Part shown: one piece after another, positions 388-30,521 of the stretch
Position numbering within the stretch: position 1 is the first letter of the stretch
Layout: each line of letters starts with the position of its first letter
Assembly (NCBI GenBank): GCA_026418995.1
Contig: JAOAAG010000237.1
Location: 1 to 39,824 of the forward strand
Reading direction: 5' to 3'
Length of the DNA: 39,824 nt
Source of the DNA: Anaerolineae bacterium
GTDB lineage: Bacteria; Chloroflexota; Anaerolineae; B4-G1
Notes under the pieces: generated by a model
Seen by the model: only the letters and a program-made list of their open reading frames with translations
Told to the model about the DNA's origin: nothing
Databases searched by the model: none
Program-made: the position numbers and the translations under genes

Positions 388-3300
388 ATGTTTCACAACT
401 TTACAAAGCGATTGGGGGTCTACGTACTGTTCGCAGGAGTGATCGGGATACTGACAGGCGGGTATGACCTCCTCCATGCCCCAGCCGCTGCTCTCGCTAA
501 AACCGGTGGGAAACCGTCAGTTACTGATGCAACCTCAAGCACGTATGCACCGCAGGCGTGCACAACCTCGGTCTCCGGCAATATCACCGCTCCGGTCACA
601 TGGACGCCAGCCGGCAGCCCCTACTGCGTCACCGCCGACCTCTATGTTCGGCCCGGTGGCGCGTTGACCATTCAAGCCGGTGTCCAGGTGCAGGTCTCTG
701 ACAATATGTGGATCAGAGTGCAAGGCGGCGCGTTGAATGTTCAGGGCGCGCCGGGCAATCCCGTCGTGTTCACCGCGGCTTCCAACCGTTGGCGTTACCT
801 GTCCGTCGAGAGCGGCAGTGCGCAGATGACGCACTGCGTCATCGAAAAAGCAGGGCTTGTATCCACCGAAGCTGCGCTGCGCCTGTTCGTCAGTGATGTT
901 CAGGTGCAAAACTGTACGGTGCGCAACAACGGCGGACATGGCATCGAGCTGGGCGGCGAAGGTTCGACGATGCTTTTGGAGAACGTGGCGGTGACGGACA
1001 ATGCCGGCCGCGCGGTGTTCCAGAACACCATCAACATGAACCCCACCTACCGCAATGTGATGTTGAGCGGCAATGGTCTCAATGCAGTTATCCTGCCCCC
1101 CGGCACGCTGAACCGCGACGTGACCCTCGATAGCACCGGCATCACCGGCGGGCCTCTGCTCCTGGATTATGACCTTTATGTACCAGTCAGCACCACCTTG
1201 ACCCTGCTCCCCGGCACCACCCTGACGGTGGATAATGACAACGTCTGGGTGCGGGTGCAGGGCGGCGCACTGGTGGCGGAAGGCACAGCCGAAAAGCCCA
1301 TCACCTTGACCGTCAATCTGGTGGATGGTTCCAGTCGCTGGCGCTATCTGTCCATCGAGGCGAACAGCCGCGCCCGGCTGGACTATGTCACCCTGGAGCA
1401 TGCCGGCCTCTACAGCAACGAGGCCGGTCTGTATATTCAGACTTCTGACGTGCAGATGCGCCATAGCGTCGTGCGCGCTAACGCCGGCCCCGGCATCGTG
1501 CTTAGCGGCGAGGGGATCACCCCGACCTTGGAAAGTGTGCTTGTGACCGGCAACGGCGGTTTCGCCATCAAGCAGAATACGGTCAACATGAATCCCATCT
1601 ACCGCGACGTGACGCTGACTGGCAACGGAACGGATGCCGTGTACCTGCCCACCGGCGCGCTGAACCGCGACGTGACCTTGGATGGCGTGGGAATCGGGGG
1701 CAAGCCCTTTATCCTGGATTACGATCTCTATGTGCCGGTCAGCACCACCTTGACGTTGCGCCCCGGCACAACCTTCGCCTTCGACCTCGACAACGTCTGG
1801 TTGCGCGTGACGGGCGGCACGCTGGTAGCGGAAGGCACGGCCACGCAGCCCATCACCTTCACGGCTGCTTATACGACGCCCAGGCCGGGCCTGTATCGCA
1901 TGATTGCCATTGATTCGGGCGCGGCGCGTTTTGATCATTGCGCGATCAACTCGGCGGGATTATACGGTTCTCCGGCGCTCCTGGTCGGGTCGGTCAACCA
2001 GGTGACGGTGCGGAACTGTCGCGTCTACGGTAACAGCGGCGACGGGATGCAGGTGAGTAACAACACCGGCGCCGTCATCCTGGAAAACTCGGCCTTCTTC
2101 AGCAACACCAACGGCCTGCGGCTGAACAACGCCGGGTCGGTGACGAGCGCGAACTGCACTTTCCAGAACAACAGCAGCTACGGCGTCTTGCAGAATTCCA
2201 ACGATACTTTGAGCTACGTAGATAACGTCTTTAGCGGCAATGGGGTGGCAGGCGTAGGCATCAACGGCGGCACGCGCCTCGCGCCTATGACGCTCGGCCC
2301 GTCTGGAAATTCCTTCCGCGTGTTGGGTGACGTCACCGTCGGGCCGACCGCGACGTTGACGATTCAACCCGGCGTGCGGGTGGATTTTGCGCAGTACAAG
2401 GGGCTGGTGGTGGAAGGAACGCTGAACGCCGCCGGCTCGGCCACCCAGCCGATTACGTTCACCGGCACGGCGGAGACAAGCGATTGGTGGTGGGGGATCA
2501 TCGTGCGCAACGCCGGCTCGGCCACCCTGGAGCACGCGACCGTGGCCTACGCGGGATATTGGTCGGATAATACTGGCGTGCTCAAGTCGGGCAGCGGCAG
2601 CCTGATCCTGCGGAATTCCACCATCCGCAACAACGGCGGCGCGGGGCTGCGCATCCTCAACAGCACCGGCTACCACATTCTCACCGGCAACGTCTTCTGG
2701 GCCAACAGTGTGGGCGTGTTGGTGCAAGATACAACGCAGAGCGTGGCGCTGAGTGGCAATGTGTTCGCCGGCAACACCGACTTCGGCGTGCGCAACCTGA
2801 ACTCTGCTACCGTGTACGCCCGCCAGAACTACTGGGGCGACGCCAGCGGGCCAACCCACGCCACGCTCAACCCTGCCGGCACGGGCGACAAGGTGAGTGA
2901 CAATGTGGTCTTCGATCCGTGGTTGACGGCGCTGCCGGAGGGCGGGCAAATGGTGGGCGACCTGTTGTTCACGACCCGGGCGCCTGCCTTCATCAGCCCG
3001 GGCCAAACGGTGGACTATGCCATCCAATATATGAACCTGTTGACCGACACGGTGCGCAACGCGCTGGTGGTGGTGCAGTTGCCGGCGGCGGGCGACCTGG
3101 TGTCGGTCAGCGACGGCGGCATATACTGGCGCGAACGGGATCAGCTTTTCTGGAAACTGGGCGACCTGCCGTCGGGCAGTGCCGGCACGCTCTCCTTCCA
3201 GGTGCGCTTCCTGTGGGGCTTGCAGCGCAACTACAGCGACAGCACCATCACCATTTTCACCGCGGATAATTACAATCCCGGCGAACTGGACAGGCAGCCT

Positions 3301-5292
3301 TATTTCGACTATCAGCCCGTCACAATCAACACAGTGACGCCACTGACACAGGCGCAATTCGACGCGCAACTGGCCGCCTCGCCTGCCCTGCAAGCCGCTT
3401 ACGACGCAGCGCTGGCAGCCGGTTACGCCTATCACAGCGCGGCCAACGTCACCCGCAGCGATGGCGCGACTGTGCTCGGCGCGGTGCTGGTCAACACGGC
3501 CCGCCGCGCCGCCCGCATCCTTACCCTGTACAATAACCAGGTGCTCGTCTACACGATCAACGCCGGCGAATTCATCGTGGAAGACAGCAGCGGCGGTATG
3601 CGCATGGATCTCCTCACCCGCACGACCGGCGAATGGGGCGCGTGGGCATACAATCCTGCCATCAGCGCACTCTCCATGGCCGCCGATGGCTGCACGGTCA
3701 ACGCCTGCAAGCGGAACTGTCGCACGAAGATCGTCAGTTGGGAGTTCGTCACCAAGAAAAGCGCGCGCATCGTCGGTTGGACGGCGTTATCGTTCTTCAG
3801 CGGCGGTGGCGGCCTGCTCGGCGCGGCCTATGAAGTCTGGGATACGGTCAGCACGGCCAAAGAATTCCTCTACGATTGCCGGGTGAACTGCGAGGCCGAC
3901 CCATCCACCCATTGCTGCACGGCCGGTCAGGTGCGTTACAGCGGCGGCTTTATCGGGGGGATGACCAACAGTTGTTACCGCGAGAGATGCAACGCCGCCG
4001 TCGGCATGTGGGTGCCTGACGGCTACCAGACCTGCATCGCCTATGGACAGCGCTGCGTCGCCGGCGTTGGCGCGGGGGCCGGCTGCGTGAATTGCGAAGA
4101 GCGCCTGAACGCGCAGCGCGCGCAGGTGCAGGCGATCACCGTATCGGCTCCAGAAGCCGCGCAGCCACAGGGGTGCAGCGCAACCGCCGCCGGCGGCAAG
4201 CCACGCTGCCGCGACCTGAAGAACATCCAGGCAAAGGACCCCAACGCCCTCTACGGGCCGGCGGGCGACCTGCTGCCCGGCCAGACCGTCGTTTACACCA
4301 TCACCTACGAGAACGAGGGGGCGGGCCGCGCCTACGGCGTCTACGTGACCAACCCGCTGCCCGATGTCTTTGATGCAGCCACGCTCAACCTGCACGGCAA
4401 CGGCATCTACATAGCAGCCAGCCGTGAGATGATGTGGTACGTCGGCGAATTGGGGCCGAAAGGCGCTCCCGATTCCAGAGGCGCCATCACTTACACCGTC
4501 ACGCTCAAAAACAGCTTGCCCTCGGGCACGGTGGTGAGCAATCAGGCCACCGTCTATTTCCCCTCCGTGCCGGAGGAGACGCCCACCAATGCCTGGGTGA
4601 ACGTCGTTGCGCCCCTGGCGGCCATGCCGCAGGAACTGACCACCGCCTACATGACGCCGCTCGCCATCACGCTGAGCGGCCGCGAGATCAGCGGATTGCC
4701 GTTGACCTACGAGATCGTTGATGCGCCTTATGGCGGTATCCTGAGCGGCACCCTGCCCAACCTCATCTACACACCGGCGGAGAACTTTACCGGCCCGGAT
4801 GCCTTCGCCTTCCGTGTGAGCAACGGCGTCACCACTAGCCGCGCCGCGCAGGTCTATATCACGGTAACGCCGGTGGGGGATACAACGCCGCCGCAGGTGG
4901 TGTGGACCGACCCAGTCAGCGGGACAAAGGACATCACCGTCAATGCGACGCCCGTCTTTACCGACGCGCTTGGCCCACTCTACGCGCCAGTTATTCTGAT
5001 TGGCGTCTCCGAGCCGCTCAGTGAAACCACCGTCACGACCAGCACGGTCGTCCTGCGACTCGTGGGCGGCGCAACATTGACTGCCAAGGTCACGTTCGAC
5101 CCGTCCGGCAACTGGATCATACTACAACCGCGCGTGCCGTTGATGACCGGCGACTATGAAGTGCTGGTGACCACTGCCATCGCCGACCGCGCCGCCAACT
5201 ATCTGGTCGCGCCATACCTGTTTCGTTTCAGTACTGTAGCGCCGGTCGCGAGGTATTACATCTACTTGCCGCTTGTGCTGCGGCAATCGTAA
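388..5292 (+). CDS. Large secreted/surface protein: right-handed parallel beta-helix repeats, DUF11-like domains, Cys-rich insert, Ig-like domains, Chloroflexota-type C-terminal YLPLVLR tail
   Basis: N-terminal hydrophobic signal; many N-x-x-x-G-I/V beta-helix rungs; PGQTVxYxIxYxN domains; YTPAENFTGPDAF and DTTPPQVV Ig-like motifs; ends YIYLPLVLRQS; RBS GAGG upstream. Confidence 0.9.
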   Translation: MFHNFTKRLGVYVLFAGVIGILTGGYDLLHAPAAALAKTGGKPSVTDATSSTYAPQACTTSVSGNITAPVTWTPAGSPYCVTADLYVRPGGALTIQAGVQVQVSDNMWIRVQGGALNVQGAPGNPVVFTAASNRWRYLSVESGSAQMTHCVIEKAGLVSTEAALRLFVSDVQVQNCTVRNNGGHGIELGGEGSTMLLENVAVTDNAGRAVFQNTINMNPTYRNVMLSGNGLNAVILPPGTLNRDVTLDSTGITGGPLLLDYDLYVPVSTTLTLLPGTTLTVDNDNVWVRVQGGALVAEGTAEKPITLTVNLVDGSSRWRYLSIEANSRARLDYVTLEHAGLYSNEAGLYIQTSDVQMRHSVVRANAGPGIVLSGEGITPTLESVLVTGNGGFAIKQNTVNMNPIYRDVTLTGNGTDAVYLPTGALNRDVTLDGVGIGGKPFILDYDLYVPVSTTLTLRPGTTFAFDLDNVWLRVTGGTLVAEGTATQPITFTAAYTTPRPGLYRMIAIDSGAARFDHCAINSAGLYGSPALLVGSVNQVTVRNCRVYGNSGDGMQVSNNTGAVILENSAFFSNTNGLRLNNAGSVTSANCTFQNNSSYGVLQNSNDTLSYVDNVFSGNGVAGVGINGGTRLAPMTLGPSGNSFRVLGDVTVGPTATLTIQPGVRVDFAQYKGLVVEGTLNAAGSATQPITFTGTAETSDWWWGIIVRNAGSATLEHATVAYAGYWSDNTGVLKSGSGSLILRNSTIRNNGGAGLRILNSTGYHILTGNVFWANSVGVLVQDTTQSVALSGNVFAGNTDFGVRNLNSATVYARQNYWGDASGPTHATLNPAGTGDKVSDNVVFDPWLTALPEGGQMVGDLLFTTRAPAFISPGQTVDYAIQYMNLLTDTVRNALVVVQLPAAGDLVSVSDGGIYWRERDQLFWKLGDLPSGSAGTLSFQVRFLWGLQRNYSDSTITIFTADNYNPGELDRQPYFDYQPVTINTVTPLTQAQFDAQLAASPALQAAYDAALAAGYAYHSAANVTRSDGATVLGAVLVNTARRAARILTLYNNQVLVYTINAGEFIVEDSSGGMRMDLLTRTTGEWGAWAYNPAISALSMAADGCTVNACKRNCRTKIVSWEFVTKKSARIVGWTALSFFSGGGGLLGAAYEVWDTVSTAKEFLYDCRVNCEADPSTHCCTAGQVRYSGGFIGGMTNSCYRERCNAAVGMWVPDGYQTCIAYGQRCVAGVGAGAGCVNCEERLNAQRAQVQAITVSAPEAAQPQGCSATAAGGKPRCRDLKNIQAKDPNALYGPAGDLLPGQTVVYTITYENEGAGRAYGVYVTNPLPDVFDAATLNLHGNGIYIAASREMMWYVGELGPKGAPDSRGAITYTVTLKNSLPSGTVVSNQATVYFPSVPEETPTNAWVNVVAPLAAMPQELTTAYMTPLAITLSGREISGLPLTYEIVDAPYGGILSGTLPNLIYTPAENFTGPDAFAFRVSNGVTTSRAAQVYITVTPVGDTTPPQVVWTDPVSGTKDITVNATPVFTDALGPLYAPVILIGVSEPLSETTVTTSTVVLRLVGGATLTAKVTFDPSGNWIILQPRVPLMTGDYEVLVTTAIADRAANYLVAPYLFRFSTVAPVARYYIYLPLVLRQS

Positions 5293-6173: not shown

Positions 6174-6520
6174 ACTACAGATGACTATGTGCGCCAGTGA
6201 CGAAGCAGGTTGCTCCGGTGGGGGGATACCCGCCGGAGAGGAGAAGTTCCTGAGAAACTGCCGGTCCGGGCAGGTGGGGAGAAGAAGAGCGATGAGTATG
6301 GTACAGGTCAATCTTGAAGACAAGGTGATTGGTGAGCACGTGTTGTCAGGGTGCTTGGGCATCTGGGCGACACGTAGATGCCGCAGATAGGGAAAGCACT
6401 CTGCCGACCGTCCAGCCGGCGCGCGTCGCGTTTGCCTTCGGCTTGCGCTTGCCCGGCAGCCGCTGCGCGGGGCGTTAATGCGCCGGGTTAAATCAGAGAG
6501 TAAGGAGGCAAGGCTACACG

Positions 6521-7201
6521 ATGGAAAGAAAAGCACAATGGATTGACTACCTGGTTGCGGTGCTGGTACTTGGTTCGCTTTGGGGCTTCGCCGAGGTCGT
6601 GCTGGGGGGTGCAATGAAGATAGCCAAGGTGCCGTACCGGTCTGGTATCCTGACCGGCCTTGGAGTGGGACTGATGGCCCTCGCTGTCGGGGCCTTCAGA
6701 AGGCCCGCGTTGTTGCCAGGTATGGCGTTGGTGGCTGCCTGTTGCAAGCAACTGGTGGTACCCATTCTGCGCGTCTCTTTTATGTGCAAGGCCAATTCCT
6801 GCCTGGCAGTTCTGCTGGACGGCGTGGCCCTGTGCGGAGTCGTGGCGCTGGCTGGACGGTGGCTGGATAAGAGCTATCCGACCAGAGTAGCGAGTGGGGC
6901 GTCGGCAGCGTTGTTGGCAGCAGTGGGCTTTTACCTGATAGGTATGCGGTTAGCGCCCTGCCAGTATCTCCTCTCGTTTAATCGTCCCGGCGGTCTGCTG
7001 GCCTTCCTCGGTGCTGAGGGCCTGGTATGGATGATCTTCTCGGCCATCTTCTTCCCCGTTGGCTATGCGGTGGGCAGAAAGGCCGGCGATGTCATCCCCG
7101 CCTGGAGGGTAGGCAGGGCATCGCTGTATTATGCTCTCGCTGCGGCTATTGTAGCGTTTAGCTGGCTGGCGAGCGCGCTGGCCATCGCCAACGGGATTTA
7201 G
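6521..7201 (+). CDS. Integral membrane protein, ECF S-component-like, Cys-rich; substrate unknown
   Basis: About 6-7 hydrophobic helices in 226 aa; GSLWGFAEVVLG...P...G.L N-terminal pattern; ACCK and CKANSC motifs; RBS AAGGAGG. Confidence 0.7.
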   Translation: MERKAQWIDYLVAVLVLGSLWGFAEVVLGGAMKIAKVPYRSGILTGLGVGLMALAVGAFRRPALLPGMALVAACCKQLVVPILRVSFMCKANSCLAVLLDGVALCGVVALAGRWLDKSYPTRVASGASAALLAAVGFYLIGMRLAPCQYLLSFNRPGGLLAFLGAEGLVWMIFSAIFFPVGYAVGRKAGDVIPAWRVGRASLYYALAAAIVAFSWLASALAIANGI

Positions 7202-7220
7202 AGTAAGTTGAGGGCTGCCT

Positions 7221-7529
7221 ATGAAGGTCGAGATATCTTCACCCTGGGCCAGGGAGTTTATCCGCAAGCACGGTGGTGTGATCAACATCGCCTGGCGCAC
7301 TGTCTGCATGGACTGATGAACCATCTTCGAGGGCCCATCCGGTCGGATGGGAAAGCCAGATCATCCGGAGGAGTTCGTCTGCTTCCAGGCAGAGGATATA
7401 ACTGTTTATATCTCCAAGCCATTCTTGCGCGGAAAAGTGAAACCAGGGACACGGGAGATCTATTTCTACATTGACGGTTACGGACGTCATACACTCGCCT
7501 TGGACCCTCCATACGAGGGCGAGGCATGA
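7221..7529 (+). CDS. Small HesB-related CC/Se-motif selenoprotein with two adjacent in-frame UGA codons (C29-M-D-U32-U33), 102 aa
   Basis: ATG 7221 (GAGG upstream) reads MKVEISSPWAREFIRKHGGVINIAWRTVCMD-TGA-TGA-TIFEGPSGRMGKPDHPEEFVCFQAEDITVYISK... in the same frame as ORF 7347-7529. SECIS-like hairpin follows. The gene fills the gap between its neighbours. Confidence 0.8.
7334..7351 (+). promoter_or_regulatory. Bacterial SECIS-like hairpin for the UGA-UGA pair
   Basis: CCCATCC-GGTC-GGATGGG: 7-bp stem with GGUC loop, 21 and 24 nt after the two UGAs. Confidence 0.7.
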
Positions 7530-7564
7530 GCCGTGGTATACTTTGTTGAGTTGAAAGGAGAAAT

Positions 7565-7843
7565 ATGCCAACCGAACAGGAGGTTATCGAGGCGCTGCGC
7601 CCGGTGATGGACCCCGAGCTGGGAATGAGTGTGGTGGACCTGGGAATGATCCGGGAGGTTAACGTCGAAGGGGATACGGTCGAGATTAAAATGGTGTTGA
7701 CCGTGCCATTTTGTCCGCTGGCGGGCCTGATCACCAGGCAAGTGCAGAACGCCGCGGCAGCCCTACCAGGCGTCAAAGAGGCCAAGGTGACGCTGCTACA
7801 GGAGCCGTGGAACCCTGGCTGGATAAGCGGACAGCAGCGATAG
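7565..7843 (+). CDS. DUF59/SufT-like metal-sulfur cluster assembly factor
   Basis: DPELGMSVVDLGMI, LTxPxCP and PW motifs; RBS AAAGGAG. Confidence 0.9.
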   Translation: MPTEQEVIEALRPVMDPELGMSVVDLGMIREVNVEGDTVEIKMVLTVPFCPLAGLITRQVQNAAAALPGVKEAKVTLLQEPWNPGWISGQQR

Positions 7844-7875
7844 CGTCCACCAGGCACGGATGCCTGTGAGTTCCA

Positions 7876-7904
7876 TTGATGGTCACTTCCGAAGTGACCG
7901 TCAA
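7876..7904. repeat. REP-like palindrome, family B, copy 1
   Basis: TTGATGGTCACTTC-C-GAAGTGACCGTCAA; shares the GTGACCGTCA arm with the copies at 19739 and 21146. Confidence 0.7.
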
Positions 7905-7920
7905 CTGGGCGCATGGAGTG

Positions 7921-9171
7921 ATGAACGTGGAGGTTGAGCCTTATCCGATGCTGAGCGTGGAAGAGGCCCTGGCGCAGGTATTAGCTGCTTTTGAGCCGCT
8001 GCCGCCGGAGCGCAAACCGATTCTGGAAGCGCTGGGGCAGGTACTGGCTGAGGACATCTTTGCCGGGATGGACATCCCCCCGCTGGCTAATTCGGCGATG
8101 GATGGCTACGCTGTACGCTGCGCAGACACCGCTGAAGCTTCGCCTGAGCATCCCTGCCGCCTCCGTGTCGTGGCAGACCTGGCCGCGGGCTATGTTCTTA
8201 ACGAACCGCTGCAGCCAGGGACTGCCGTGCGCATTATGACGGGGGCCCCCGTGCCCCCCGGCGCCGAGGCGGTAATTCCTTTCGAGGAAATTGAGCGCGA
8301 CGGAGAGGAGATTCTCGTCTCCAGACCCTATCCCTACCACAAAAACATTCGCGCCGCCGGTGAGGATGTTCGTGCCGGGCAGAAGGTACTGCCACGGGGC
8401 ACCGTCCTGCGTCCCCAGGAGATCGGCATGCTCGCCGCGCTGGGGCGAGCGGAGGCGCTGGTACACCGGCGCCCGCGCGTGGCGATTCTCTCCACCGGCG
8501 ACGAGGTGATCGCAGTGGACGCTCCCTGGCAGCCGGGCAAAATCCGCGACGCCAACTCATACTCCAACGCCGCACAGGTGCTGCGCTACGGGGGCGTGCC
8601 GCTCTGCCTGGGCATCGCCCGCGACGACATAGCCGACCTGACGGCGAAAATCCGCACCGGCCTGGAGCAGGGCGCCGACCTGTTCCTCACCTCTGGCGGG
8701 GTCTCGGTGGGCGATTTCGACGTGGTAAAGCAGGTACTGGCTGCCGAGGGTGAGATGGCTTTCTGGCAGGTGCGTATGAAGCCGGGCAAGCCGCTGGCCT
8801 TCGGCCATATCCGGGGAGTGCCGCTCCTGGGCCTGCCGGGCAATCCCGTCTCGGCGATGATCGCCTTCGAGCTGTTTGCCCGCCCGGCCATTCTCAAAAT
8901 GCTGGGCAAGACCCAACTGGAAAAACCCACGGTGGAGGCGGTGCTGCTCGACGAAATCAAGCGCAAGGACAACCGCCGCCATTATCTGCGCGTGAGCCTG
9001 GAGGAGAGGGACGGCCGGTATCATGCGCGGCTGACCGGCGACCAAGGTTCGGGCATCCTGCTCTCGATGGTACTGGCGCAGGGACTGGCGATCATCCCGG
9101 AGGATGTGGACCATCTGCCTGCTGGCTCTCGCGTGCAGGTAATGATGCTCGATTGGCCGGAGCGGGGTTAG
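7921..9171 (+). CDS. moeA: Molybdopterin molybdo/tungstotransferase MoeA (start uncertain, 7921-7948)
   Basis: SAMDGYA, IMTGAPVP, STGDE, TSGGVSVGDFD, KPGKP and GLPGNPVS motifs. Confidence 0.95.
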   Translation: MNVEVEPYPMLSVEEALAQVLAAFEPLPPERKPILEALGQVLAEDIFAGMDIPPLANSAMDGYAVRCADTAEASPEHPCRLRVVADLAAGYVLNEPLQPGTAVRIMTGAPVPPGAEAVIPFEEIERDGEEILVSRPYPYHKNIRAAGEDVRAGQKVLPRGTVLRPQEIGMLAALGRAEALVHRRPRVAILSTGDEVIAVDAPWQPGKIRDANSYSNAAQVLRYGGVPLCLGIARDDIADLTAKIRTGLEQGADLFLTSGGVSVGDFDVVKQVLAAEGEMAFWQVRMKPGKPLAFGHIRGVPLLGLPGNPVSAMIAFELFARPAILKMLGKTQLEKPTVEAVLLDEIKRKDNRRHYLRVSLEERDGRYHARLTGDQGSGILLSMVLAQGLAIIPEDVDHLPAGSRVQVMMLDWPERG

Positions 9172-9215
9172 GGTTCGGGGTTGGGGACCGGAGGTTCGGG
9201 TCCGGAGGTACATCG

Positions 9216-10814
9216 TTGAGCGAGAAGTGGCGGTTACTGGATACCGGGCCGCGTCCTGCGGCAGAAAACATGGCTCTTGACGAGGTTGTGCTTACGGCGC
9301 GCAGTCGTAACGCGGTGCCGAACACGTTACGTTTCCTCCAGTTTTACCCCCGCTGTACCCTGGTCGGCTACCATCAGGCTGTGGAGCAGGAAATCCGCGT
9401 CTCCTATTGCCAGGAGCACGGCATTGAAATCAACCGGCGGCTCACCGGCGGGGGCGCGCTATTCTGGGACGAGACCCAGTTGGGGTGGGAAATTTTCGCC
9501 TCTAGAGACGATCCCCGTTTCCTCTGCTCTGCCGAGCTACTCTACGAGCGACTGTGCCAGGGCGCGATCAAGGGGCTGGAGAAGCTGGGAGTGCGCGCAG
9601 CGTTCCGCCCCAAGAATGATATCGAAGTGCACGGCCGCAAAATTTCCGGCACCGGTGGGACCAGTATGGAAGGCGCCTTTATGTTCCAGGGCACCCTGTT
9701 GGTGGACTTCGATGTGGATACGATGCTCCGTGCATTGCGTATCCCCACCGAGAAACTGAAGGATAAGGAGATTGCATCGGTGAGGGAGCGGGTTACCTGC
9801 CTGGCGTGGGAGCTGGGCGCGGCGCCCCCTCTACCTCAGATCAAAGCTGCGCTGGTAGCTGGCTTCTCGGAGGTGCTGGGTGTAGAGTTCGAGCAGGCGC
9901 CTTTGACTCCCCTGGAGCAGGAACTGCTGACGAGCCGCCTCCCCTACTTTCGCTCCGAGGAGTGGGTCTACGGCATACGCCGTCCGCTGCTCCACCGTGA
10001 CGAACTGCGGGCGCTCTACAAAAGCCCCGGGGGGCTGATTCGCATCTCGCTGGTGGTGGATAGGCAGGCACGCCGCATCCGTGAGGCGTTCATCACCGGC
10101 GATTTCTTCGCCTACCCCCGCCGCGCCATCCTCGACCTGGAGGCACGGCTCAAGGGAGCCCCCGCCGCAATCGGGGCCGTGGGCCGCATCGTCGAGGAGT
10201 TCTTCGCTAATGAAGAGCTCGAAATGCCCGGCGTCTCCACAGCCGACATGGTGCGCACCCTGCGCGAGGCCCTGGAGAAAAGCACCTACACCCGTTACGG
10301 CATCCGCCCGGATGAGGTGAACTACGTCTTCTCAGTGGTCGAGCCGCTGGCGGAGATCATGGAGCGGCGGCTCGCTCCTGGTCACCGGAACGGACCGCTG
10401 CCCCTCCTCCTTCCGTACTGCGCCAAACTCACCTCGTGCGCCTACCGCTACCGGGAAGGCTGCACTTTGTGCGGTGGATGTTCCATCGGCGCAGCCTTTG
10501 AACTCGCCGAACGATACGGTTTGATACCGATTTCCATCCAGAACTACGAGCACCTTGAGGCGACGCTGGAGCGCCTCAAAGCCTCAGGCCACCCTGCCTT
10601 CATCGGAAGCTGCTGCGAGCCGTTCTATGCCAAACATCGGGATGACTTTGAACGCATCGGATTGCCCGGCATCCTGGTGGATGTAGATAGCTCCACCTGC
10701 TACGACCTGGGCCGTGAACAGGACGCCTACGCCGGCCGGTTCGACAATCAAACATATCTGAAACTGGACCTGCTGGAACGGATTCTGGCGCGGGTCTCCT
10801 CCGCTGCACAGTGA
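9216..10814 (+). CDS. Lipoate/octanoate-protein ligase (Lpl(AB)-type) fused to a C-terminal Cys-rich DUF116-like domain
   Basis: NMALDE, RRLTGGGA, NDI..GRKISG and FQGTLL motifs; accessory domain with ITGDFF; C-terminal LPYC..C..CxxCGxC..GSCC. TTG start at 9216 follows GGAGG. Confidence 0.88.
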   Translation: MSEKWRLLDTGPRPAAENMALDEVVLTARSRNAVPNTLRFLQFYPRCTLVGYHQAVEQEIRVSYCQEHGIEINRRLTGGGALFWDETQLGWEIFASRDDPRFLCSAELLYERLCQGAIKGLEKLGVRAAFRPKNDIEVHGRKISGTGGTSMEGAFMFQGTLLVDFDVDTMLRALRIPTEKLKDKEIASVRERVTCLAWELGAAPPLPQIKAALVAGFSEVLGVEFEQAPLTPLEQELLTSRLPYFRSEEWVYGIRRPLLHRDELRALYKSPGGLIRISLVVDRQARRIREAFITGDFFAYPRRAILDLEARLKGAPAAIGAVGRIVEEFFANEELEMPGVSTADMVRTLREALEKSTYTRYGIRPDEVNYVFSVVEPLAEIMERRLAPGHRNGPLPLLLPYCAKLTSCAYRYREGCTLCGGCSIGAAFELAERYGLIPISIQNYEHLEATLERLKASGHPAFIGSCCEPFYAKHRDDFERIGLPGILVDVDSSTCYDLGREQDAYAGRFDNQTYLKLDLLERILARVSSAAQ

Positions 10815-10815
10815 G

Positions 10816-11907
10816 ATGCGGACTCAGGTAGATGTACTGGTGATCGGAGCCGGACCCGCCGGGAGCAGCGCCGCACGCGCTGCTGCCTCTGGTGGGCTGC
10901 GCGTACTGCTGGTCGAGCGCCGGCCTACCGTGGGGCTCCCGGTACAGTGTGCGGAGTACGTGCCGGCCCAGCTTGTGCACTACATCTCTATCCCGGAGCG
11001 CTGCATCGCCCGCCGTGTCCGTGCGATGCACACGCACCTGCCCGATGGCCAGGTCGTGGAAACGCCCGCGTGCGGCTATATGCTCGACCGCGCGCTGTTC
11101 GACAGGGCGCTTGCTGTAGCCGCCTGCCAGGCCGGCGCCGAGCTGTGGACGGCAGCACCGGCCGTAACGGTGCTCCCGGGGGAAAATCTGGCGTATGTGA
11201 GGAGAGGCGGGAGGCTCGAGGAGGTGGGGTATCGCATCCTCATCGGAGCGGATGGCCCGCGCTCCCTGGTGGGGAAGCGCATCGGGCAGGTCAACGCGGA
11301 GTTTGTCCACGCCGTACAGGTAGAAGTAGCGCTGAACGGAGGGCGCGATCACACTGAGGTCTACTTCGATTCCGTTTACCGGGGGGGCTATGGCTGGTTC
11401 TTCCCCAAGGAGAACACGGCCAACGTCGGTGTGGGGGTCAACTGCGGCATGGGAGGTGAGCCACGTCGGGCGCTCGCCCATCTGCTGGAGCGTCTGAACC
11501 TCGGATCGGCGGCCATTGTAGGGCACACCGCTGGCCTCATCCCGGTCGGCGGGGTGGTGGGCCAGATGCGGGTGGGCAATGTGCTGCTGGCCGGGGACGC
11601 GGCAGGACACACCCACCCTATCACCGGCGCGGGCGTCTTCGCCGCTGTCGTGGGGGGGATACTGGCAGGGGAGATGAGCGTCAAGGCGCTCAGGAACGGC
11701 GATCTGGAGCTGCTGGAGGAGTATGAGAGAGAGTGGTCGGCCTTTATGGGAGGGCCGCTGAGGCATGCCCTGAGCAAGCGGTGTTACCGGGACGAGCGCT
11801 GGAGTGACCACCCGGTCGCGTTAAGCCGTCTGATCCGGGAGACATGGGTGGCCTTTCCAGACTATGCGAGACGCACACCAAGTGAGGTGACTCACCCGTG
11901 CAGGTGA
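10816..11907 (+). CDS. Geranylgeranyl-reductase-like FAD oxidoreductase (LipT-like by context)
   Basis: GAGPAG, GADG, GYGWFFPK and LAGDAAG..P.TG.G motifs; lies between the ligase and the LipS1/LipS2 genes. Confidence 0.85.
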   Translation: MRTQVDVLVIGAGPAGSSAARAAASGGLRVLLVERRPTVGLPVQCAEYVPAQLVHYISIPERCIARRVRAMHTHLPDGQVVETPACGYMLDRALFDRALAVAACQAGAELWTAAPAVTVLPGENLAYVRRGGRLEEVGYRILIGADGPRSLVGKRIGQVNAEFVHAVQVEVALNGGRDHTEVYFDSVYRGGYGWFFPKENTANVGVGVNCGMGGEPRRALAHLLERLNLGSAAIVGHTAGLIPVGGVVGQMRVGNVLLAGDAAGHTHPITGAGVFAAVVGGILAGEMSVKALRNGDLELLEEYEREWSAFMGGPLRHALSKRCYRDERWSDHPVALSRLIRETWVAFPDYARRTPSEVTHPCR

Positions 11908-11916
11908 TCGTCATCT
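11885..11916. repeat. Degenerate REP-like palindrome, family B
   Basis: AGGTGACTCACC..GGTGATCGTCATCT resembles the other family B copies. Confidence 0.4.
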
Positions 11917-11933
11917 GATGTCACGGAGGCACT

Positions 11934-12956
11934 ATGGAAAGTCCTGAGTACGTACAGATCAGCCTGGCGGCTGCGATGGCGCTGGGCTACCGTCCGGCGA
12001 TGTTTCGCCGCAACTCTTATCTGACCGGGCTCAACCTGCTGGTGACGTATCCGGAGGGTTGCGCAGCCCGCTGTGCGTTCTGTGGCCTCAATCATCAGCG
12101 GCGTATCGAGCCGGAAAAGCGCACGTTTATCCGGGTGGACTGGCCTACCTATCCCCTGGATGACGTGATTGCCCGCCTTAACCGCAACGGACACGCATTG
12201 CGCCGTGTCTGCGTGGGCATGATCACTCACCGCCGCGCCTTCGACGACACGGTCGCGATCATCCGCCGCTTCCACGACGCATCCGACCGCCCTATCTCGG
12301 CGCTCATTTCCCCCACGCTACTCGGCGATCTGTCGCGCCTGGCGGAGATCAGGGAGGCCGGTGCAGATATGATCGGCATCGCCATAGACGCCGCCACGCC
12401 GGAGCTGTTCGAGCGCTACCGTGGCCGTGGCGTCCGGGGGCCGCATCGCTGGGCGCACTACTGGGCCGCCGTGGAAGAGGCTGTCCGTGTGATGGGGCCC
12501 TACAAGGTAGGCGTGCACCTGATTGTTGGCCTGGGTGAGACCGAAGAGCAGATGATCGCCACCATTCAGCGCGCGCACGACATGGGGGCCCACACCCATC
12601 TCTTCTCTTTCTTTCCTGAAGCTGGTACTCCGATGGAGCACCATCCGCAGCCGACCTTTGGGCATTACCGGAGGGTGCAACTGGCACGCTACATCATCAA
12701 CAAGGGCTACGGTCGCTATGAGGGGATGCGCTTTAACGCCGCTGGTCAGGTGATAGACTTTGGGCTGGAGACCGAGGAGTTGATCCAGTACGGTGAGCCT
12801 TTTATGACCTCCGGCTGTCCTGGCCCGGATGGCAAAGTGGCCTGCAACCGTCCATTTGGCAACGAGAGGCCAGGCCAGCCCATTCGTAACTACGCCTTTG
12901 AGCCAGAGCCAGAAGACGTGGAGCTGGCTCGCTACCAGTTGCGCGACTACGCCTGA
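11934..12956 (+). CDS. lipS1: Radical SAM lipoyl synthase component LipS1
   Basis: SPEYVQISLAAA start, CAARCAFC (CX3CX2C), FIRVDWP, HLIVGLGETE, C-terminal GCPG..ACNRP; cluster context. Confidence 0.8.
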   Translation: MESPEYVQISLAAAMALGYRPAMFRRNSYLTGLNLLVTYPEGCAARCAFCGLNHQRRIEPEKRTFIRVDWPTYPLDDVIARLNRNGHALRRVCVGMITHRRAFDDTVAIIRRFHDASDRPISALISPTLLGDLSRLAEIREAGADMIGIAIDAATPELFERYRGRGVRGPHRWAHYWAAVEEAVRVMGPYKVGVHLIVGLGETEEQMIATIQRAHDMGAHTHLFSFFPEAGTPMEHHPQPTFGHYRRVQLARYIINKGYGRYEGMRFNAAGQVIDFGLETEELIQYGEPFMTSGCPGPDGKVACNRPFGNERPGQPIRNYAFEPEPEDVELARYQLRDYA

Positions 12957-13963
12957 TGTCCCCGCGACCCCATCTGGCGCCAGGCGCCTCTGGCGAGGCG
13001 AAACGCCTCTTCAACCTTCCCTGGCCGGAGCTACAGGGAGCGGCCTGGACGGTGCGTCATGCGTACCATCCGCCAGAGCTGCGCTTCGCCGTGCCGGGGG
13101 GCAAAAGGTACGCCACCGAACATTATCGCAACACCCCTTGGCGCTTTGCCAGCATCAGCCTGACCGGGCGACATTGTGATTTGCAGTGCGAACACTGCCG
13201 GGGGCGTATGCTGGCGACGATGCTACCTGCCCTCACTCCCGAGATGCTGGTGCTTCAAGCAGAGCGGCTGCTCGAGCGGGGATGTGCCGGCGTGCTTATC
13301 AGCGGCGGCTGCAACCTCGACGGCGCGGTGCCGATCAAACCGTACCTCTCCGCTATCGCTCGCGTCAGGAGCATGGGGCTGCGCACCATCGTCCATACCG
13401 GCCTGCTGGACCGGGAGACGGCGGAGGGGCTGAAAAACGCGGGTGTGGATCAGGTGCTGCTGGACGTCGTGGGGGACGAAGAGACCATACAACAGGTGCT
13501 CCATCTCACTCATTCGCCTGCTGAGTACGAGGCGACGCTGGCGTTAGCCCGCGCAGCGGGGTTATCGGTTGCACCACATGTGATCGTCGGCCTGCATTGC
13601 GGGGAACTGCGCGGGGAATTGGCTGCGCTGGAGATCATCCGCCGTACAGGAGCTGATGTGGTCGTGATAGTGGTGTTACGCCCGCTGCCGCACACGCCGC
13701 TGGCGCAGGCGCCTGTAATGGCTCCCGACACAGTGGGGCGGCTGGTAGCGGTGGCGCGGCTCCTGTTCCCGGCTGTACCGGTGACCTTGGGCTGCGCCAG
13801 GCCGGCCGGGCCGCTCAAGGCAGAAATGGAGCGGCTGGCAGTACTGGCTGGTATCAACGGCCTGGCCTACCCCGACCCGGCCACTGTAGAGCTGGCCGCA
13901 GGTCTGGGGTTGCGTACCTCATTCGTCGAGAGCTGCTGCACCCTTGCCGTCACCTCCCAGTAG
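12956..13963 (+). CDS. lipS2: Radical SAM lipoyl synthase component LipS2
   Basis: SISLTGRHCDLQCEHC, LISGGC, HTG, PHVIVGL, LGCARP and C-terminal CC; TGATG overlap with lipS1. Confidence 0.8.
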   Translation: MSPRPHLAPGASGEAKRLFNLPWPELQGAAWTVRHAYHPPELRFAVPGGKRYATEHYRNTPWRFASISLTGRHCDLQCEHCRGRMLATMLPALTPEMLVLQAERLLERGCAGVLISGGCNLDGAVPIKPYLSAIARVRSMGLRTIVHTGLLDRETAEGLKNAGVDQVLLDVVGDEETIQQVLHLTHSPAEYEATLALARAAGLSVAPHVIVGLHCGELRGELAALEIIRRTGADVVVIVVLRPLPHTPLAQAPVMAPDTVGRLVAVARLLFPAVPVTLGCARPAGPLKAEMERLAVLAGINGLAYPDPATVELAAGLGLRTSFVESCCTLAVTSQ

Positions 13964-16022: not shown

Positions 16023-16724
16023 TTAAGGTTTCCACACTTCCCACACCCTGCCCACCAGCGCGGGGCCAGGCTTGAGCGTGGGTTGACCTGGCTGCCAACC
16101 TGAAGGCGTCACCTCTCCGGTAGCCCGCACATGCTGGAACGCCTTAATCTGCCGGATGAGCTCATCAGGATTGCGACCCACTTCCGGGGTCAGTACCTCC
16201 ATCGCCCGGATCACAAAGTCTGGATCAATGATGAACCGTCCCCGAATGTCTACCCCGGCGGCCTCATCATATACCCCGTAGATCCTGCCGATCTTCCCCC
16301 CGGCATCGGAGAGCATCGGGAACGGCACACCGCCGCTGACCATTTTGGACAGCTCTTGCTCCTGCCAAATCTTATGCACGAAGCGGCTGTCAGTGCTCAT
16401 CGCCAGTACTTCCACGCCGAGGGCCTTCAGCTCCTCATAGCGGGCGGCGACCGCCGCCAGCTCCGTCGGTCAGACAAAGGTAAAGTCGCCGGGGTAGAAG
16501 CAGAGCACGATCCATTTGCCCCGATAGTCGGAAAGTTTGACGTTCTGGAAGCCGACGCCCTCAATGTAGGCACTGGCCTCAAAATCAATGGCCTCCTGGC
16601 CAACCCGTGCTACCATCTTGACCTCCTTCATAAGCACACCGCTTTCGGGCACAGCCGGGGACTCAACCGCCGGCACAATGGGCCCACGCGCTGGCTGAAC
16701 GCAACTGTCCTTAAGTTCTGCCAT
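16023..16724 (-). CDS. prxU: Selenocysteine-containing peroxiredoxin PrxU, 233 aa (U at 16470-16472)
   Basis: [16 protein letters not shown] puts UGA at the peroxidatic Cys position. ORFs 16470-16748 and 16023-16415 are in one frame. SECIS follows; AAGGAGG RBS before ATG 16724. Confidence 0.93.
16443..16458 (-). promoter_or_regulatory. SECIS element of prxU
   Basis: GGCGGC-GGTC-GCCGCC hairpin starting 11 nt after UGA, as in E. coli fdhF geometry. Confidence 0.85.
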
Positions 16725-16769
16725 TTTCACCCTCCTTCTACCTGACATACCTGATTGCGGGCTGGTCCT

Positions 16770-28597: not shown

Positions 28598-30337
28598 TCA
28601 CCAGAAGACCGCGTCCAACGTCTCGTCGGGCACGTCCCAGACGACGTTGTGCGGCGGGAGCGGCTCATATTTCATGAATTCCGGCACCCGGTCATGCGCC
28701 TTGGTGAAGCCCGCCGCGCGGTTGAAGGCCAGCTCTTTGTCAATAATCTCCTTGCCGATACGGGCCGCATCCTCCGTCCTCCAGTCTGTGCCCAGGACAC
28801 CCGCACACTCCTCCATCAACCCCTCGAAGCCACTGGGGATATCCAGGATAGCAAAGGCGATGAACAGGCAGTGACCGGAGGAGTCAATGAAAGCAGTGGT
28901 GTACTGGAAACCACGGGAGAGGTCCGCCTTATCGGTGGCGAACTGATCCACCTTACCGCTAACGCCCAGAATCTCCGGGGCAATGGTGTAGCCGGCGGTG
29001 TGATCGGCACCCATCGTGGAGGTAGCATATGTGATGCCAATGCCCTTGACGGCACGCGGCTCATAAGCGGGCATGTTCTGGCCCTTGCACGCGGGGACAC
29101 GATGCCAGCCGAAGGCCCGGCCGGTGAAAGCAGCGCCGTTGCCGATGATACGGCCCAGCGGTGTGCCCTTACGGACCTCCTCATCCAGCAGCTTGATGGC
29201 CCCCTGCCAATCACCGAAGGGCATCAGACCCGCATCCATCGCCACTGCGATGGTTCCGCCGGTCTCGATGGTGTCGAGGCCGAGATCGTTGCACAGCCAG
29301 ATCAGCTTGCCAATGGCCTCCAGGTTATCAATGCCGCAGTTGGCTCCCAGCGCCCAGGTGGATTCGTACTCAATGCAGGAGACGATCTCATTCCCCTGCT
29401 CATCGTAGTACGTGTTAGAGCACTGGATGGTACAGCCGGGATGGCAGGCGTGGTTGTAGAGTTCCTTGCCCAGGCGTGCCTTGTTATTCTCGAAAATGGC
29501 CTCGCCGGAGGTCGCTGCCGCGCCCTCAAAACGGCCCTCGCGGAAGTTACGGGTAGGATAACCGCCAGCCTCGTTGAGGATATTGACCAGCACCGCGGTA
29601 CCATAGGTATTCAGGCCGCCCTTGGGCTTGGTGATATCGTGCTGGCGCAGCGCTTCCAGCATCTTCTTGCGCCCCTGGTCAAAGAGCTCGGGGTTGGCGA
29701 TCTCCACGCCTGGCCCTCCCTCGGCATTCACCACCATCAGCTTGAGGCCCTTGGAGCCCATCACAGCACCCAGCCCACCACGACCGGAGTAGCGGCTAGG
29801 CCGACCATGGGCGTCGTTAAAGCACACGCCCGCCATCGCCATACGCATCTCGCCGGCCACACCAATGGAGCAGATATCCGCTTTCTTACCGAAGCGCTCG
29901 AAGAGCAGCGGGTAAACCTCGTAGAGGCTCCGCCCAACGTACTCGTCGGCAGGGAAGAAGGTGGCCCCATCCTTCGTGATATGCAGCCCCCACCAGCCAC
30001 CATCTTTGGGATAGCCCTCTACGATGATCGCCTTGATCCCCAACCTCGCCACCGACTGCGGCCACCCAGAGCCAGCATTGGACTCCTTGATCCCTCCGGT
30101 GAGGGGGGACTTGCCACCCACCGAGACACGGCCAGAGGTGGGCGCATTGGTGCCGGTGATAATGCCCGGAGCGAAAACGAGCTTGTTGTTGGGGCCCAGA
30201 GGGTGGCATAATGGATCCACCTCATCGCAGACCACGGTAGACGTGAGACCACGACCACCAAGCAGACGGTACTTTTCGGGGACATCTTCGTAGGAGATAG
30301 TGCGGTCGGTCATGTTGACGCGCATTATCTTGGGCAT
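28598..30337 (-). CDS. aor: Tungsten-family aldehyde:ferredoxin oxidoreductase
   Basis: KSPLTGGIKESN, GRGGLGAVMGSKGLK, CxxGCxIxC, EYES, DxxGLDTI, GADH motifs; GGGAGG RBS before ATG 30337. Confidence 0.93.
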   Translation of the reverse strand: MPKIMRVNMTDRTISYEDVPEKYRLLGGRGLTSTVVCDEVDPLCHPLGPNNKLVFAPGIITGTNAPTSGRVSVGGKSPLTGGIKESNAGSGWPQSVARLGIKAIIVEGYPKDGGWWGLHITKDGATFFPADEYVGRSLYEVYPLLFERFGKKADICSIGVAGEMRMAMAGVCFNDAHGRPSRYSGRGGLGAVMGSKGLKLMVVNAEGGPGVEIANPELFDQGRKKMLEALRQHDITKPKGGLNTYGTAVLVNILNEAGGYPTRNFREGRFEGAAATSGEAIFENNKARLGKELYNHACHPGCTIQCSNTYYDEQGNEIVSCIEYESTWALGANCGIDNLEAIGKLIWLCNDLGLDTIETGGTIAVAMDAGLMPFGDWQGAIKLLDEEVRKGTPLGRIIGNGAAFTGRAFGWHRVPACKGQNMPAYEPRAVKGIGITYATSTMGADHTAGYTIAPEILGVSGKVDQFATDKADLSRGFQYTTAFIDSSGHCLFIAFAILDIPSGFEGLMEECAGVLGTDWRTEDAARIGKEIIDKELAFNRAAGFTKAHDRVPEFMKYEPLPPHNVVWDVPDETLDAVFW

Positions 30338-30383
30338 GGTACACCTCCCTTTACTGAAACTAGTTGGTACGGTCGGGTGGATA

Positions 30384-30434
30384 CAAAATAAAAAGAGCCA
30401 CCTCTGGCCGGGACAACGCCCCGAACCAGCAAGT
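30384..30434 (-). terminator. Terminator-like expression platform between the riboswitch and aor
   Basis: CTGGTTCGGG..CCCGGCCAG stem followed by CTCTTTTTATTTT. Confidence 0.5.
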
Positions 30435-30435
30435 G

Positions 30436-30521
30436 CCTCCTTTGCAAACACGGCGGGCATAGAGATTGCTCTCTATACCTTATCGCTCATCTGTCCCGGT
30501 GGGAGCATGATGAGTCGGAGG
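30436..30521 (-). ncRNA. Moco/Tuco (molybdenum/tungsten cofactor) riboswitch-like RNA
   Basis: Minus strand CCTCCGA ... GGTATAGAGA-GCAA-TCTCTATGCC (GNRA hairpin) ... CGCCGTGTTTGCAAAGGAGG matches the recalled CUCCGA...GCCUCCCG..UUUGGAAAGGAG pattern; lies upstream of aor. Confidence 0.75.

Follow-up and report, generated by a model that had tools for sequence, protein, structure and literature searches.

Can a bacterial gene be read through two stop codons that stand side by side, with selenocysteine (Sec, U) inserted at both from a single downstream hairpin? This question is raised by a short locus at positions 7221-7529 (+ strand) of contig JAOAAG010000237.1, from assembly GCA_026418995.1 of an Anaerolineae bacterium; the whole 39,824-nucleotide (nt) stretch that was analysed is referred to here as the window. 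A first-pass annotation of this stretch had described a hidden selenoprotein with a C-x-x-U-U motif, in which both UGA codons were taken to be Sec. We find that this is a real and conserved selenoprotein gene of a known family and that, judging from its relatives, both residues are almost certainly Sec. Its uncatalogued feature would then be the presence of two contiguous Sec codons on one Sec insertion sequence (SECIS). The reading that we favour, of one translated gene in which both UGAs would be recoded to Sec, is given a probability of roughly 0.8.

When TGA is translated as U, a single frame runs on the + strand from ATG 7221 to a true TGA stop at 7527-7529 and yields 102 residues (102 codons plus the stop). 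Its only internal stops are TGA 7314-7316 and TGA 7317-7319, putative Sec residues 32 and 33, which come right after TGC-ATG-GAC at 7305-7313 (Cys29-Met30-Asp31, of which the Cys is the 'C' of C-x-x-U). This frame, and the 7-bp hairpin with a GGUC loop that follows the double stop, read and translate exactly as had been claimed. The product starts MKVEISSPWAREF, continues with TVCMD-U-U-TIFEGPSGRMGKPD and ends in PPYEGEA. A Shine-Dalgarno-like GAGGG (7210-7214, + strand), which may function as such, lies 6 nt upstream of the ATG, and a GGAG- or AGGAG-like stretch is found at the same place upstream of the start in many, though not all, orthologues. The start codon stands exactly 31 codons 5' of the UU pair in 16 of 24 orthologues, and the stop at the end of the frame is TAA or TAG in 8 of the 22 orthologues that were read to the end. 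Overlapping open reading frames (ORFs) on the minus strand (7282-7914, 7239-7571 and 6950-7324) and on the plus strand (7208-7474) gave no Pfam match, and a scan of 6300-8000 for promoters and terminators found none.

Could the double TGA then be an error of sequencing or assembly? TGA-TGA at 7314-7319 is identical in Logan contigs of two hot-spring metagenome runs from two different studies: one (X1, record 1) covers 6900-7900 with differences only at 7717 and 7856, and the other (X2, record 4) covers 7145-7402 with zero differences. Where the first-pass annotation had called for a check against reads, these are assembled contigs rather than raw reads, and X1 may be the window's own source. 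The double TGA is not an assembly error, and its conservation in homologues is a stronger argument for this than the agreement of contigs.

With U read as C, residues 1-68 match NF041239, the 'CC/Se motif family (seleno)protein', at 44.1 bits against a curated cut-off of 40 (E 1.6e-11), which bears out the family assignment made at first pass. If the stops are left in, as the DNA reads, the score falls to 34.6 bits and thus under this cut-off. Pfam returned no match for the UU protein, and NCBIfam nothing besides NF041239 at E up to 1. A stop-tolerant six-frame search (E up to 0.01) of 60 related genomes and the genome under study found matches in 25 of the 61. Two TGAs are carried by 24 of the 28 listed places, at 44-98% identity; of the remaining four, one continues a copy past its frameshift, one is a C-terminal remnant and two are at chance level. 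All 24 loci that were extracted, from 22 related genomes and the genome under study, contain the hexamer TGATGA, with the hairpin at an identical distance and without a single indel, and the arrangement of TGATGA and hairpin is for this reason not a product of chance.

A few copies in related genomes deserve separate mention. One (L036, on contig C4 of genome G022) has a frameshift after residue ~52, an Ala in place of the Gly in PSGRM, and a GCUC loop, and represents either gene decay or an error in assembly; its C-terminal part, in the shifted frame, is in the database as protein P0015. Another (L041, G028:C282, 1501-1677) is 39% identical to residues 41-100 within a longer open frame, lacks the N-terminal half and the UU pair, and is either a remnant or a fusion. 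The same-genus genome G001 harbors two copies, one orthologous with 78% identity and the other approximately identical to copies of the sister family f3 (the loci are L039 at G001:C55 and L015 at G001:C38), which suggests transfer or bin contamination for the non-orthologous one.

Beyond these relatives, a scan of genome contigs recovered 23 loci. Of these, 22 have the TGA-TGA site and belong to metagenome-assembled genomes labelled Anaerolineae, Anaerolineales, Thermoflexales or Chloroflexota; the 23rd (L064), from an 'uncultured bacterium' and only 25% identical, likewise carries UU. In a sample of 400 further Chloroflexota genomes the gene occurs in two only, each with two TGAs, and no Cys-Cys (CC) form was found in the sampled Chloroflexota genomes that were searched. 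A scan of metagenome contigs, seeded with database proteins that read Trp-Trp ('WW') at the pair, gave TGA-TGA in 20 of 20 loci, including a clade of 33-42% GC content that cannot be close to Anaerolineae. Taken over all fetched loci, 70 carry the site. They were listed as 57 distinct versions, one of which is a spurious regular-expression match, leaving 56: the 24 loci above, nine further distinct loci from genome contigs, L064, L066 and L067, and the 20 metagenome loci.

The tabulation of variants that the first-pass annotation had proposed is then simple: the distinct DNA versions comprise 56 UU and no UC, CU or CC, and four CC clusters are added by the protein database. TGG, TGC and TGT occur at neither TGA position in any of the 56, although each is just one base change away. 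The Cys of the CxxU (position -3), in contrast, is present in 32 of the 57 listed versions, while 24 have V, I, L or M in its place; in the window's gene it belongs to the part of the motif that is kept only in the Anaerolineae clade. As such, the motif originally proposed stands as far as its invariant UU is concerned, and its Cys is clade-specific, from which it follows that the UU pair, and not CxxU, is the conserved unit. An alignment of 40 sequences has just four invariant columns, C32, C33, P46 and G88 (U written as C), and, in chemical terms, the putative Sec pair is the one feature that the family strictly conserves in this comparison.

How does this gene appear in protein databases? 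An exhaustive search returned 26 representatives, 20 of which start past the UU break (10 at query residue 43 or 46, and 10 at residues 35-39), while three end just before it, at residue 30 or 31, and three are full length, two reading 'WW' and one (P0022) 'CC' at the pair. A profile search added the CC proteins P0032, P0033 and P0039, as well as further WW proteins. A word-index search with the UU protein had no match, since the database entries are fragments. The Cys-Cys of P0022, P0032 and P0033 aligns to the UU pair, and P0039 has the same ILGCC motif by reading; Cys at both columns in homologues is what the first-pass annotation had looked for. Standard gene callers do misread the double stop as anticipated: the ORF listing of the window divides the gene into a 31-residue ORF (7221-7316) and a 60-residue ORF (7347-7529). 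Because callers divide or shorten it in this way, the family is largely hidden in metagenomes; fragments make up 23 of the 26 database representatives, and false 'WW' translations are present in some databases.

These WW proteins (P0005, P0025, P0027, P0028 and P0030) bring up the question of whether UGA could simply encode a standard amino acid, as in genetic codes 4 or 25, given that they would fit UGA as Trp. DNA relatives that are 59-63% identical to P0028 carry TGA-TGA, however, on contigs where the same frames end in TGA or TAA, which makes it most likely that the WW entries stem from gene calling on short contigs under the code in which UGA is Trp (code 4). Within the window itself, TGA is the stop codon of 9 of the 20 listed ORFs, including those for LplA, geranylgeranyl-reductase and LipS2, which have family matches; with TGA ending such ordinary genes, the genetic code is standard. 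A site that is conserved across phyla, contigs of two studies that agree, and purifying selection on both halves of the gene (see below) speak equally against a pseudogene or a sequencing error. Together, these explanations are close to refuted. As a side observation, some of the WW proteins bear the precomputed Pfam family PF28096.

Is it one protein, or two? The annotated split would be consistent with two products, a 31-residue peptide that ends at the double stop and a 60-residue protein that initiates within the hairpin at ATG 7347, a Met codon that is nearly invariant; as described, 20 of the 26 database representatives start past the UU site and three end at residue 30 or 31. Such fragments are caller output, however, and not evidence of expression, and no Shine-Dalgarno-like sequence is present 5' of 7347. 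The ratio of nonsynonymous to synonymous substitution (dN/dS, pairwise Nei-Gojobori) 3' of the UGAs is 0.09-0.26 in five clades, with similar values for the N-terminal part. Both halves of the gene are under purifying selection, and the downstream half thereby gives the outcome that the first-pass annotation had anticipated for a translated sequence. Codons 34-42 show coding-type third-position variation, and even in the unpaired spacer Phe36 is TTC or TTT and Gly38 is GGC, GGA or GGG, the pattern that is expected of translated sequence. Not one of the 56 versions has an indel between the halves, and the CC homologues are continuous proteins across the site.

Furthermore, AlphaFold2, run on the 40-row alignment, predicts a single compact domain over both halves, with a mean predicted local distance difference test (pLDDT) score of 94.5 and a predicted template modelling (pTM) score of 0.86. 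In this predicted structure strand 20-30 pairs with strand 34-43, placing residues 32-33 in a β-turn at the tip of the hairpin. Both this domain and the NF041239 match cross the UU break. Two separate products are therefore very improbable, and the UU gene is a genuine single gene for one protein.

If both UGAs are to be decoded as Sec, the genome should have the means to do so. The genome under study (96% complete) encodes selA (574 bits), selB (331 bits) and selD (363.8 bits), all above their curated cut-offs, and one tRNA-SeC with anticodon tca on its contig C103, and all four components that the first-pass annotation had wished to see confirmed are thereby accounted for. That annotation had also pointed to prxU as a Sec gene within the window, which proved real: PrxU (16023-16748, - strand; UGA 16470-16472) is a peroxiredoxin (PF00578, 128.5 bits) whose peroxidatic position is occupied by U (FTFVUPTE). 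It has a hairpin of 6 bp with the same GGUC loop, and gene callers would divide it into ORFs 16470-16748 and 16023-16415. Among the 22 related genomes with the UU gene, selA is found in 21, the exception being G011 (95% complete), while in a sister family none of 12 genomes has selA and there is no copy of the UU gene. Elsewhere in the genome under study, selD itself has an in-frame TGA (GUAAK; contig C159, 3095-4027, - strand), and a formate-dehydrogenase-like gene with one TGA lies on contig C16 (933-1658, - strand).

The hairpin downstream of the UU pair occupies 7334-7351 (+ strand), in the codons for P-S-G-R-M-G, with a 7-bp stem (7334-7340/7345-7351) around a GGUC loop at 7341-7344. It begins 17 nt after the first UGA (UGA1) and 14 nt after the second (UGA2), which puts its loop 24 and 21 nt further on, respectively. 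Folded alone, CCCAUCC-GGUC-GGAUGGG has a free energy of -11.4 kcal/mol, a stability that 5 of 200 shuffles reach. According to a published model (PMC13188914), a bacterial SECIS (bSECIS) has an apical loop of 3-9 nt, the first two positions of which contain G (with G or U after it), on an upper stem of 4-16 bp; its spacing is 16-37 nt and its minimum free energy at or below -7.5 kcal/mol. The 4-nt loop, 7-bp stem, GG start, spacings of 24 and 21 nt and -11.4 kcal/mol of this hairpin agree with every one of these values, and do so for both UGAs. No Rfam model matched at the hairpin at gathering threshold, where only tRNA and a molybdenum cofactor (Moco) riboswitch were reported.

Conservation of the hairpin was assessed in an alignment (A3) of 33 distinct sequences, which are related and hence not independent trials. 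Its seven stem pairs are standard in 95.7% of cells, as opposed to 24-52% in controls with the partner shifted by 1-3 columns. Six of the pairs are standard in 33 of 33 sequences, with two pairs varying only through G-U wobble. There are compensatory changes as well: the closing pair is AU instead of CG in one row (L033, a variant that recurs in further loci), and the outer pair GC instead of CG in two. Of the 33 rows, 32 share the loop GGUC, and the frameshifted copy deviates with GCUC; other clades have GGCU, GGCC or UGGAUU. The distance between UGAs and hairpin is the same in all rows, again without indels.

Codon usage within the hairpin points in the same direction. Gly is encoded there by GGT in 32 of 33 rows (the frameshifted copy having Ala), with an invariant third-position T, Arg by CGG wherever it occurs, and Ser by TCC in 32 of 33; of their codon classes in those genes of the window that have a family match, GGT accounts for 11%, and CGG and TCC for 21% each. 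Synonymous divergence is 0.19 in the hairpin codons versus 0.42-0.51 in the flanks. No second conserved hairpin came out of an alignment fold covering the 126 nt downstream of the UGAs. A larger fold around the UGAs was considered and rejected, as it was no better than shuffles (z -0.55) and not conserved; conservation is confined to the 18-nt hairpin.

So how could one hairpin serve two codons? In the mechanism that we propose, this single element of 7 bp and a GGUC loop, located 24 and 21 nt downstream within the coding sequence, would signal both UGAs. A loop-bound complex of SelB, GTP and Sec-tRNA would deliver Sec at UGA1, the ribosome would translocate by one codon, and a second SelB complex would then bind the same loop and deliver Sec at UGA2, with release factor 2 (RF2) competing at each of these two SelB-dependent events. 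Since the hairpin starts 14 nt past UGA2, it should stay folded outside the ribosome with either UGA in the A site. In the product, the tip of a β-hairpin would carry a vicinal Sec-Sec pair, within a compact domain with a predicted, weak likeness to the IscA/HesB fold. That both residues are Sec is argued for by the strict retention of TGA at both positions, by Cys-Cys in the stop-free relatives, and by the occurrence of the gene in Sec-decoding genomes; the claim of the first-pass annotation in this regard is supported at the level of comparison, with decoding itself remaining a deduction.

Alternatively, only one of the UGAs, or neither, might be read as Sec, with a near-cognate tRNA (for Trp or Cys) or a mis-charged tRNA-Sec decoding the other, resulting in a U-X or X-U site. 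SelB decoding is sensitive to spacing, and the one hairpin lies 3 nt closer to UGA2 than to UGA1; moreover, a 2026 review gives the family one Sec in the form of CxxU. Against this stand the TGA at both codons in all 56 distinct versions with never a TGG, TGC or TGT, the Cys at both positions in stop-free homologues, and spacings that both fall inside the 16-37 nt range of the bSECIS model. We consider a single Sec, or none, improbable, and return to the reading in which both UGAs would be recoded.

It should be noted, however, that several considerations weigh against a double Sec. Sec at either codon is deduced from conservation, and Cys, Trp or another read-through residue would be conceivable. 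Part of the conservation of the hairpin is due to the protein, because it encodes the conserved peptide P-S-G-R-M, and the conserved Met codon at 7347 inside it could in principle start a 60-residue product. Spacing between UGA and hairpin is held to matter in E. coli. With the U of UGA counted as 1, the second G and the U of the loop are at 29/30 from UGA1 and 26/27 from UGA2, while those of E. coli fdhF are given as G23/U24, such that the loop of the UU gene is 3 and 6 nt further from its two UGAs. The same applies to the genome's own PrxU, where the GGUC loop comes 17 nt after the UGA, 4 and 7 nt closer. Lastly, two successive SelB events in competition with RF2 imply that the yield could be low.

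What would a double insertion mean? The usual account of Sec insertion in bacteria has a single UGA at a fixed distance from a single hairpin. If our reading is true, the native machinery has to carry out two insertions in a row from one element, at 21 and 24 nt, which bears on the tolerance of spacing, on the turnover and reloading of SelB and on competition by RF2, and provides a natural test system for these. In its full extent, our proposal entails a natural Sec-Sec dipeptide, produced by two back-to-back SelB-dependent insertions from one SECIS, with double Sec as the rule across distant lineages. Among catalogued bacterial proteins it would be the first with a vicinal diselenol/diselenide site, and this site may bind arsenic or other thiophilic metals. 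For this combined claim we see the odds as only slightly favourable.

As to function, the surroundings of the gene were surveyed by clustering two ORFs on each side of it in the 56 loci. In 13 of these a ~180-residue protein with a PF04060 iron-sulfur (Fe-S) domain lies directly upstream on the same strand (L017, L018, L021, L026, L033, L045 and L087 are among them). It has a CKACG..C motif near its C-terminus and 110 N-terminal residues without a family match, and is a candidate partner. A TIGR04317 tungsten-cofactor oxidoreductase radical S-adenosylmethionine (SAM) maturase is found in 10 of the loci, followed by ACR3 arsenite efflux proteins (8), CDF transporters (7), MTH895/ArsE-type thioredoxin-like proteins (7), dihydrolipoyl-dehydrogenase/MerA-like flavoproteins (7), ArsM (5) and ArsR (4). 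The common theme of these neighbours is thiophilic metals, metalloids and metal cofactors.

In the window, the UU gene is preceded by an ORF of 226 amino acids (6521-7201, + strand) that has no family match and is conserved only in the same-genus genome. Downstream on the same strand are a DUF59/FeS_assembly_P gene (PF01883, 7565-7843) and then moeA (7876-9171).

A diselenol site that binds or hands over thiophilic metals, or metalloids such as As(III), is our tentative suggestion for the role of the protein, for which genomic context is the main guide; it would work together with the adjacent metal and arsenic genes, or with the Fe-S proteins, of many genomes. A low-potential redox pair comes next and is the more doubtful of the two. 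Several observations count against assigning either function with much force: the neighbours vary between loci and no partner is present throughout, those of the window itself (DUF59 and MoeA) recur in two other loci only (L015 and L087), and the structural matches, though consistent with one another, are weak. The related genomes are also not independent of each other, so that the support is smaller than the counts imply. The structural matches are to the fold of A-type Fe-S carriers (IscA, SufA and HesB-type), which take Foldseek ranks 1-9 and VIA ranks 1-7. The best Foldseek match is 1s98_A (E 0.021, TM-score 0.42, root-mean-square deviation (rmsd) 7.1) and the best VIA match 2d2a_B (Z 4.7, rmsd 3.3 over 75 residues). 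A sequence search of the PDB gave no match to these carriers and only chance-level matches to FabG. The 'HesB-related' of the first-pass annotation thus survives as a weak likeness in fold (E 0.021, Z at most 4.7), and not as a match in sequence.

Other features of the window are mentioned for completeness. A 1634-residue protein (388-5292, + strand) with beta-helix/NosD, DUF11 and bacterial immunoglobulin-like domains is probably a surface protein. A lipoate cluster (9153-13963, + strand) consists of an LplA-type ligase fused to DUF116, a geranylgeranyl-reductase-family flavoprotein, LipS2 and LipS1, in which the two radical SAM lipoyl synthases, LipS2 and LipS1, each score under their own curated cut-off. 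The Moco/tungsten riboswitch aptamer (RF01055; 30421-30532, - strand) reaches 43.3 bits against a gathering threshold of 36 and overlaps the 5' end of a long ORF at 28598-30460 (- strand).

How, then, does the UU gene relate to known systems? In size it is similar to IscA, SufA, HesB and the HesB-like selenoprotein TIGR01911, whereas the UU protein has no hidden Markov model match to their models. A-type Fe-S carriers have C-terminal Cys-x-Cys cluster ligands. In the 40-sequence alignment the UU family has no such conserved C-terminal Cys, and differs from these carriers in this respect.

The family NF041239 itself shares with the UU protein its size of ~100 residues and its adjacent Cys/Sec columns. 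The 2026 review, in its table of 119 prokaryotic selenoprotein families and subfamilies, has it as CxxU with one Sec, where we find two UGAs; the upstream Cys of that CxxU is present here and missing from 24 of the 56 true versions. The name 'CC/Se' suggests that the NCBI curators know that Sec occurs at the motif, and they may already be aware of UU members. In this table and in a 2022 table of prokaryotic selenoproteins there is no entry for a UU motif and no catalogued bacterial precedent for a vicinal diselenol/diselenide, the nearest motifs in the former being CU, UxxU, UxxxxU and CxU. Likewise, text searches of open-access papers yielded no description of a bacterial gene in which Sec or UGA codons are adjacent, in tandem or consecutive.

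An adjacent chalcogen pair at an active or metal site is also found in CU selenoproteins, several of which act on metals or organometals; ACR3, ArsM, ArsR and CDF genes are among those found beside the UU gene. The C-terminal Gly-Cys-Sec-Gly of mammalian thioredoxin reductase is a further case of the CU arrangement. These CU proteins, represented in the review table by SaoL, SaoC, HgcA, MbdU and KCU-star, contain one Sec and one Cys with one UGA per site, and have no sequence relationship to the UU gene, in which both residues would be Sec. The bSECIS of the fdhF type, and the consensus derived for it, similarly place a hairpin just downstream in the coding region, with a loop that has a GG start and GU; the hairpin of the UU gene, on the other hand, would serve two codons and has a 7-bp stem without a bulged U. 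Finally, recoding of more than one UGA per gene is shared with multi-Sec bacterial selenoproteins, for which the review gives UxxU in Prx-like, metal-binding and FmdB families, UxxxxU in TsoB, and a ferredoxin-thioredoxin reductase with two Sec. In those proteins the UGAs are at least one codon apart, whereas in the UU gene they are contiguous and followed by just one conserved hairpin.

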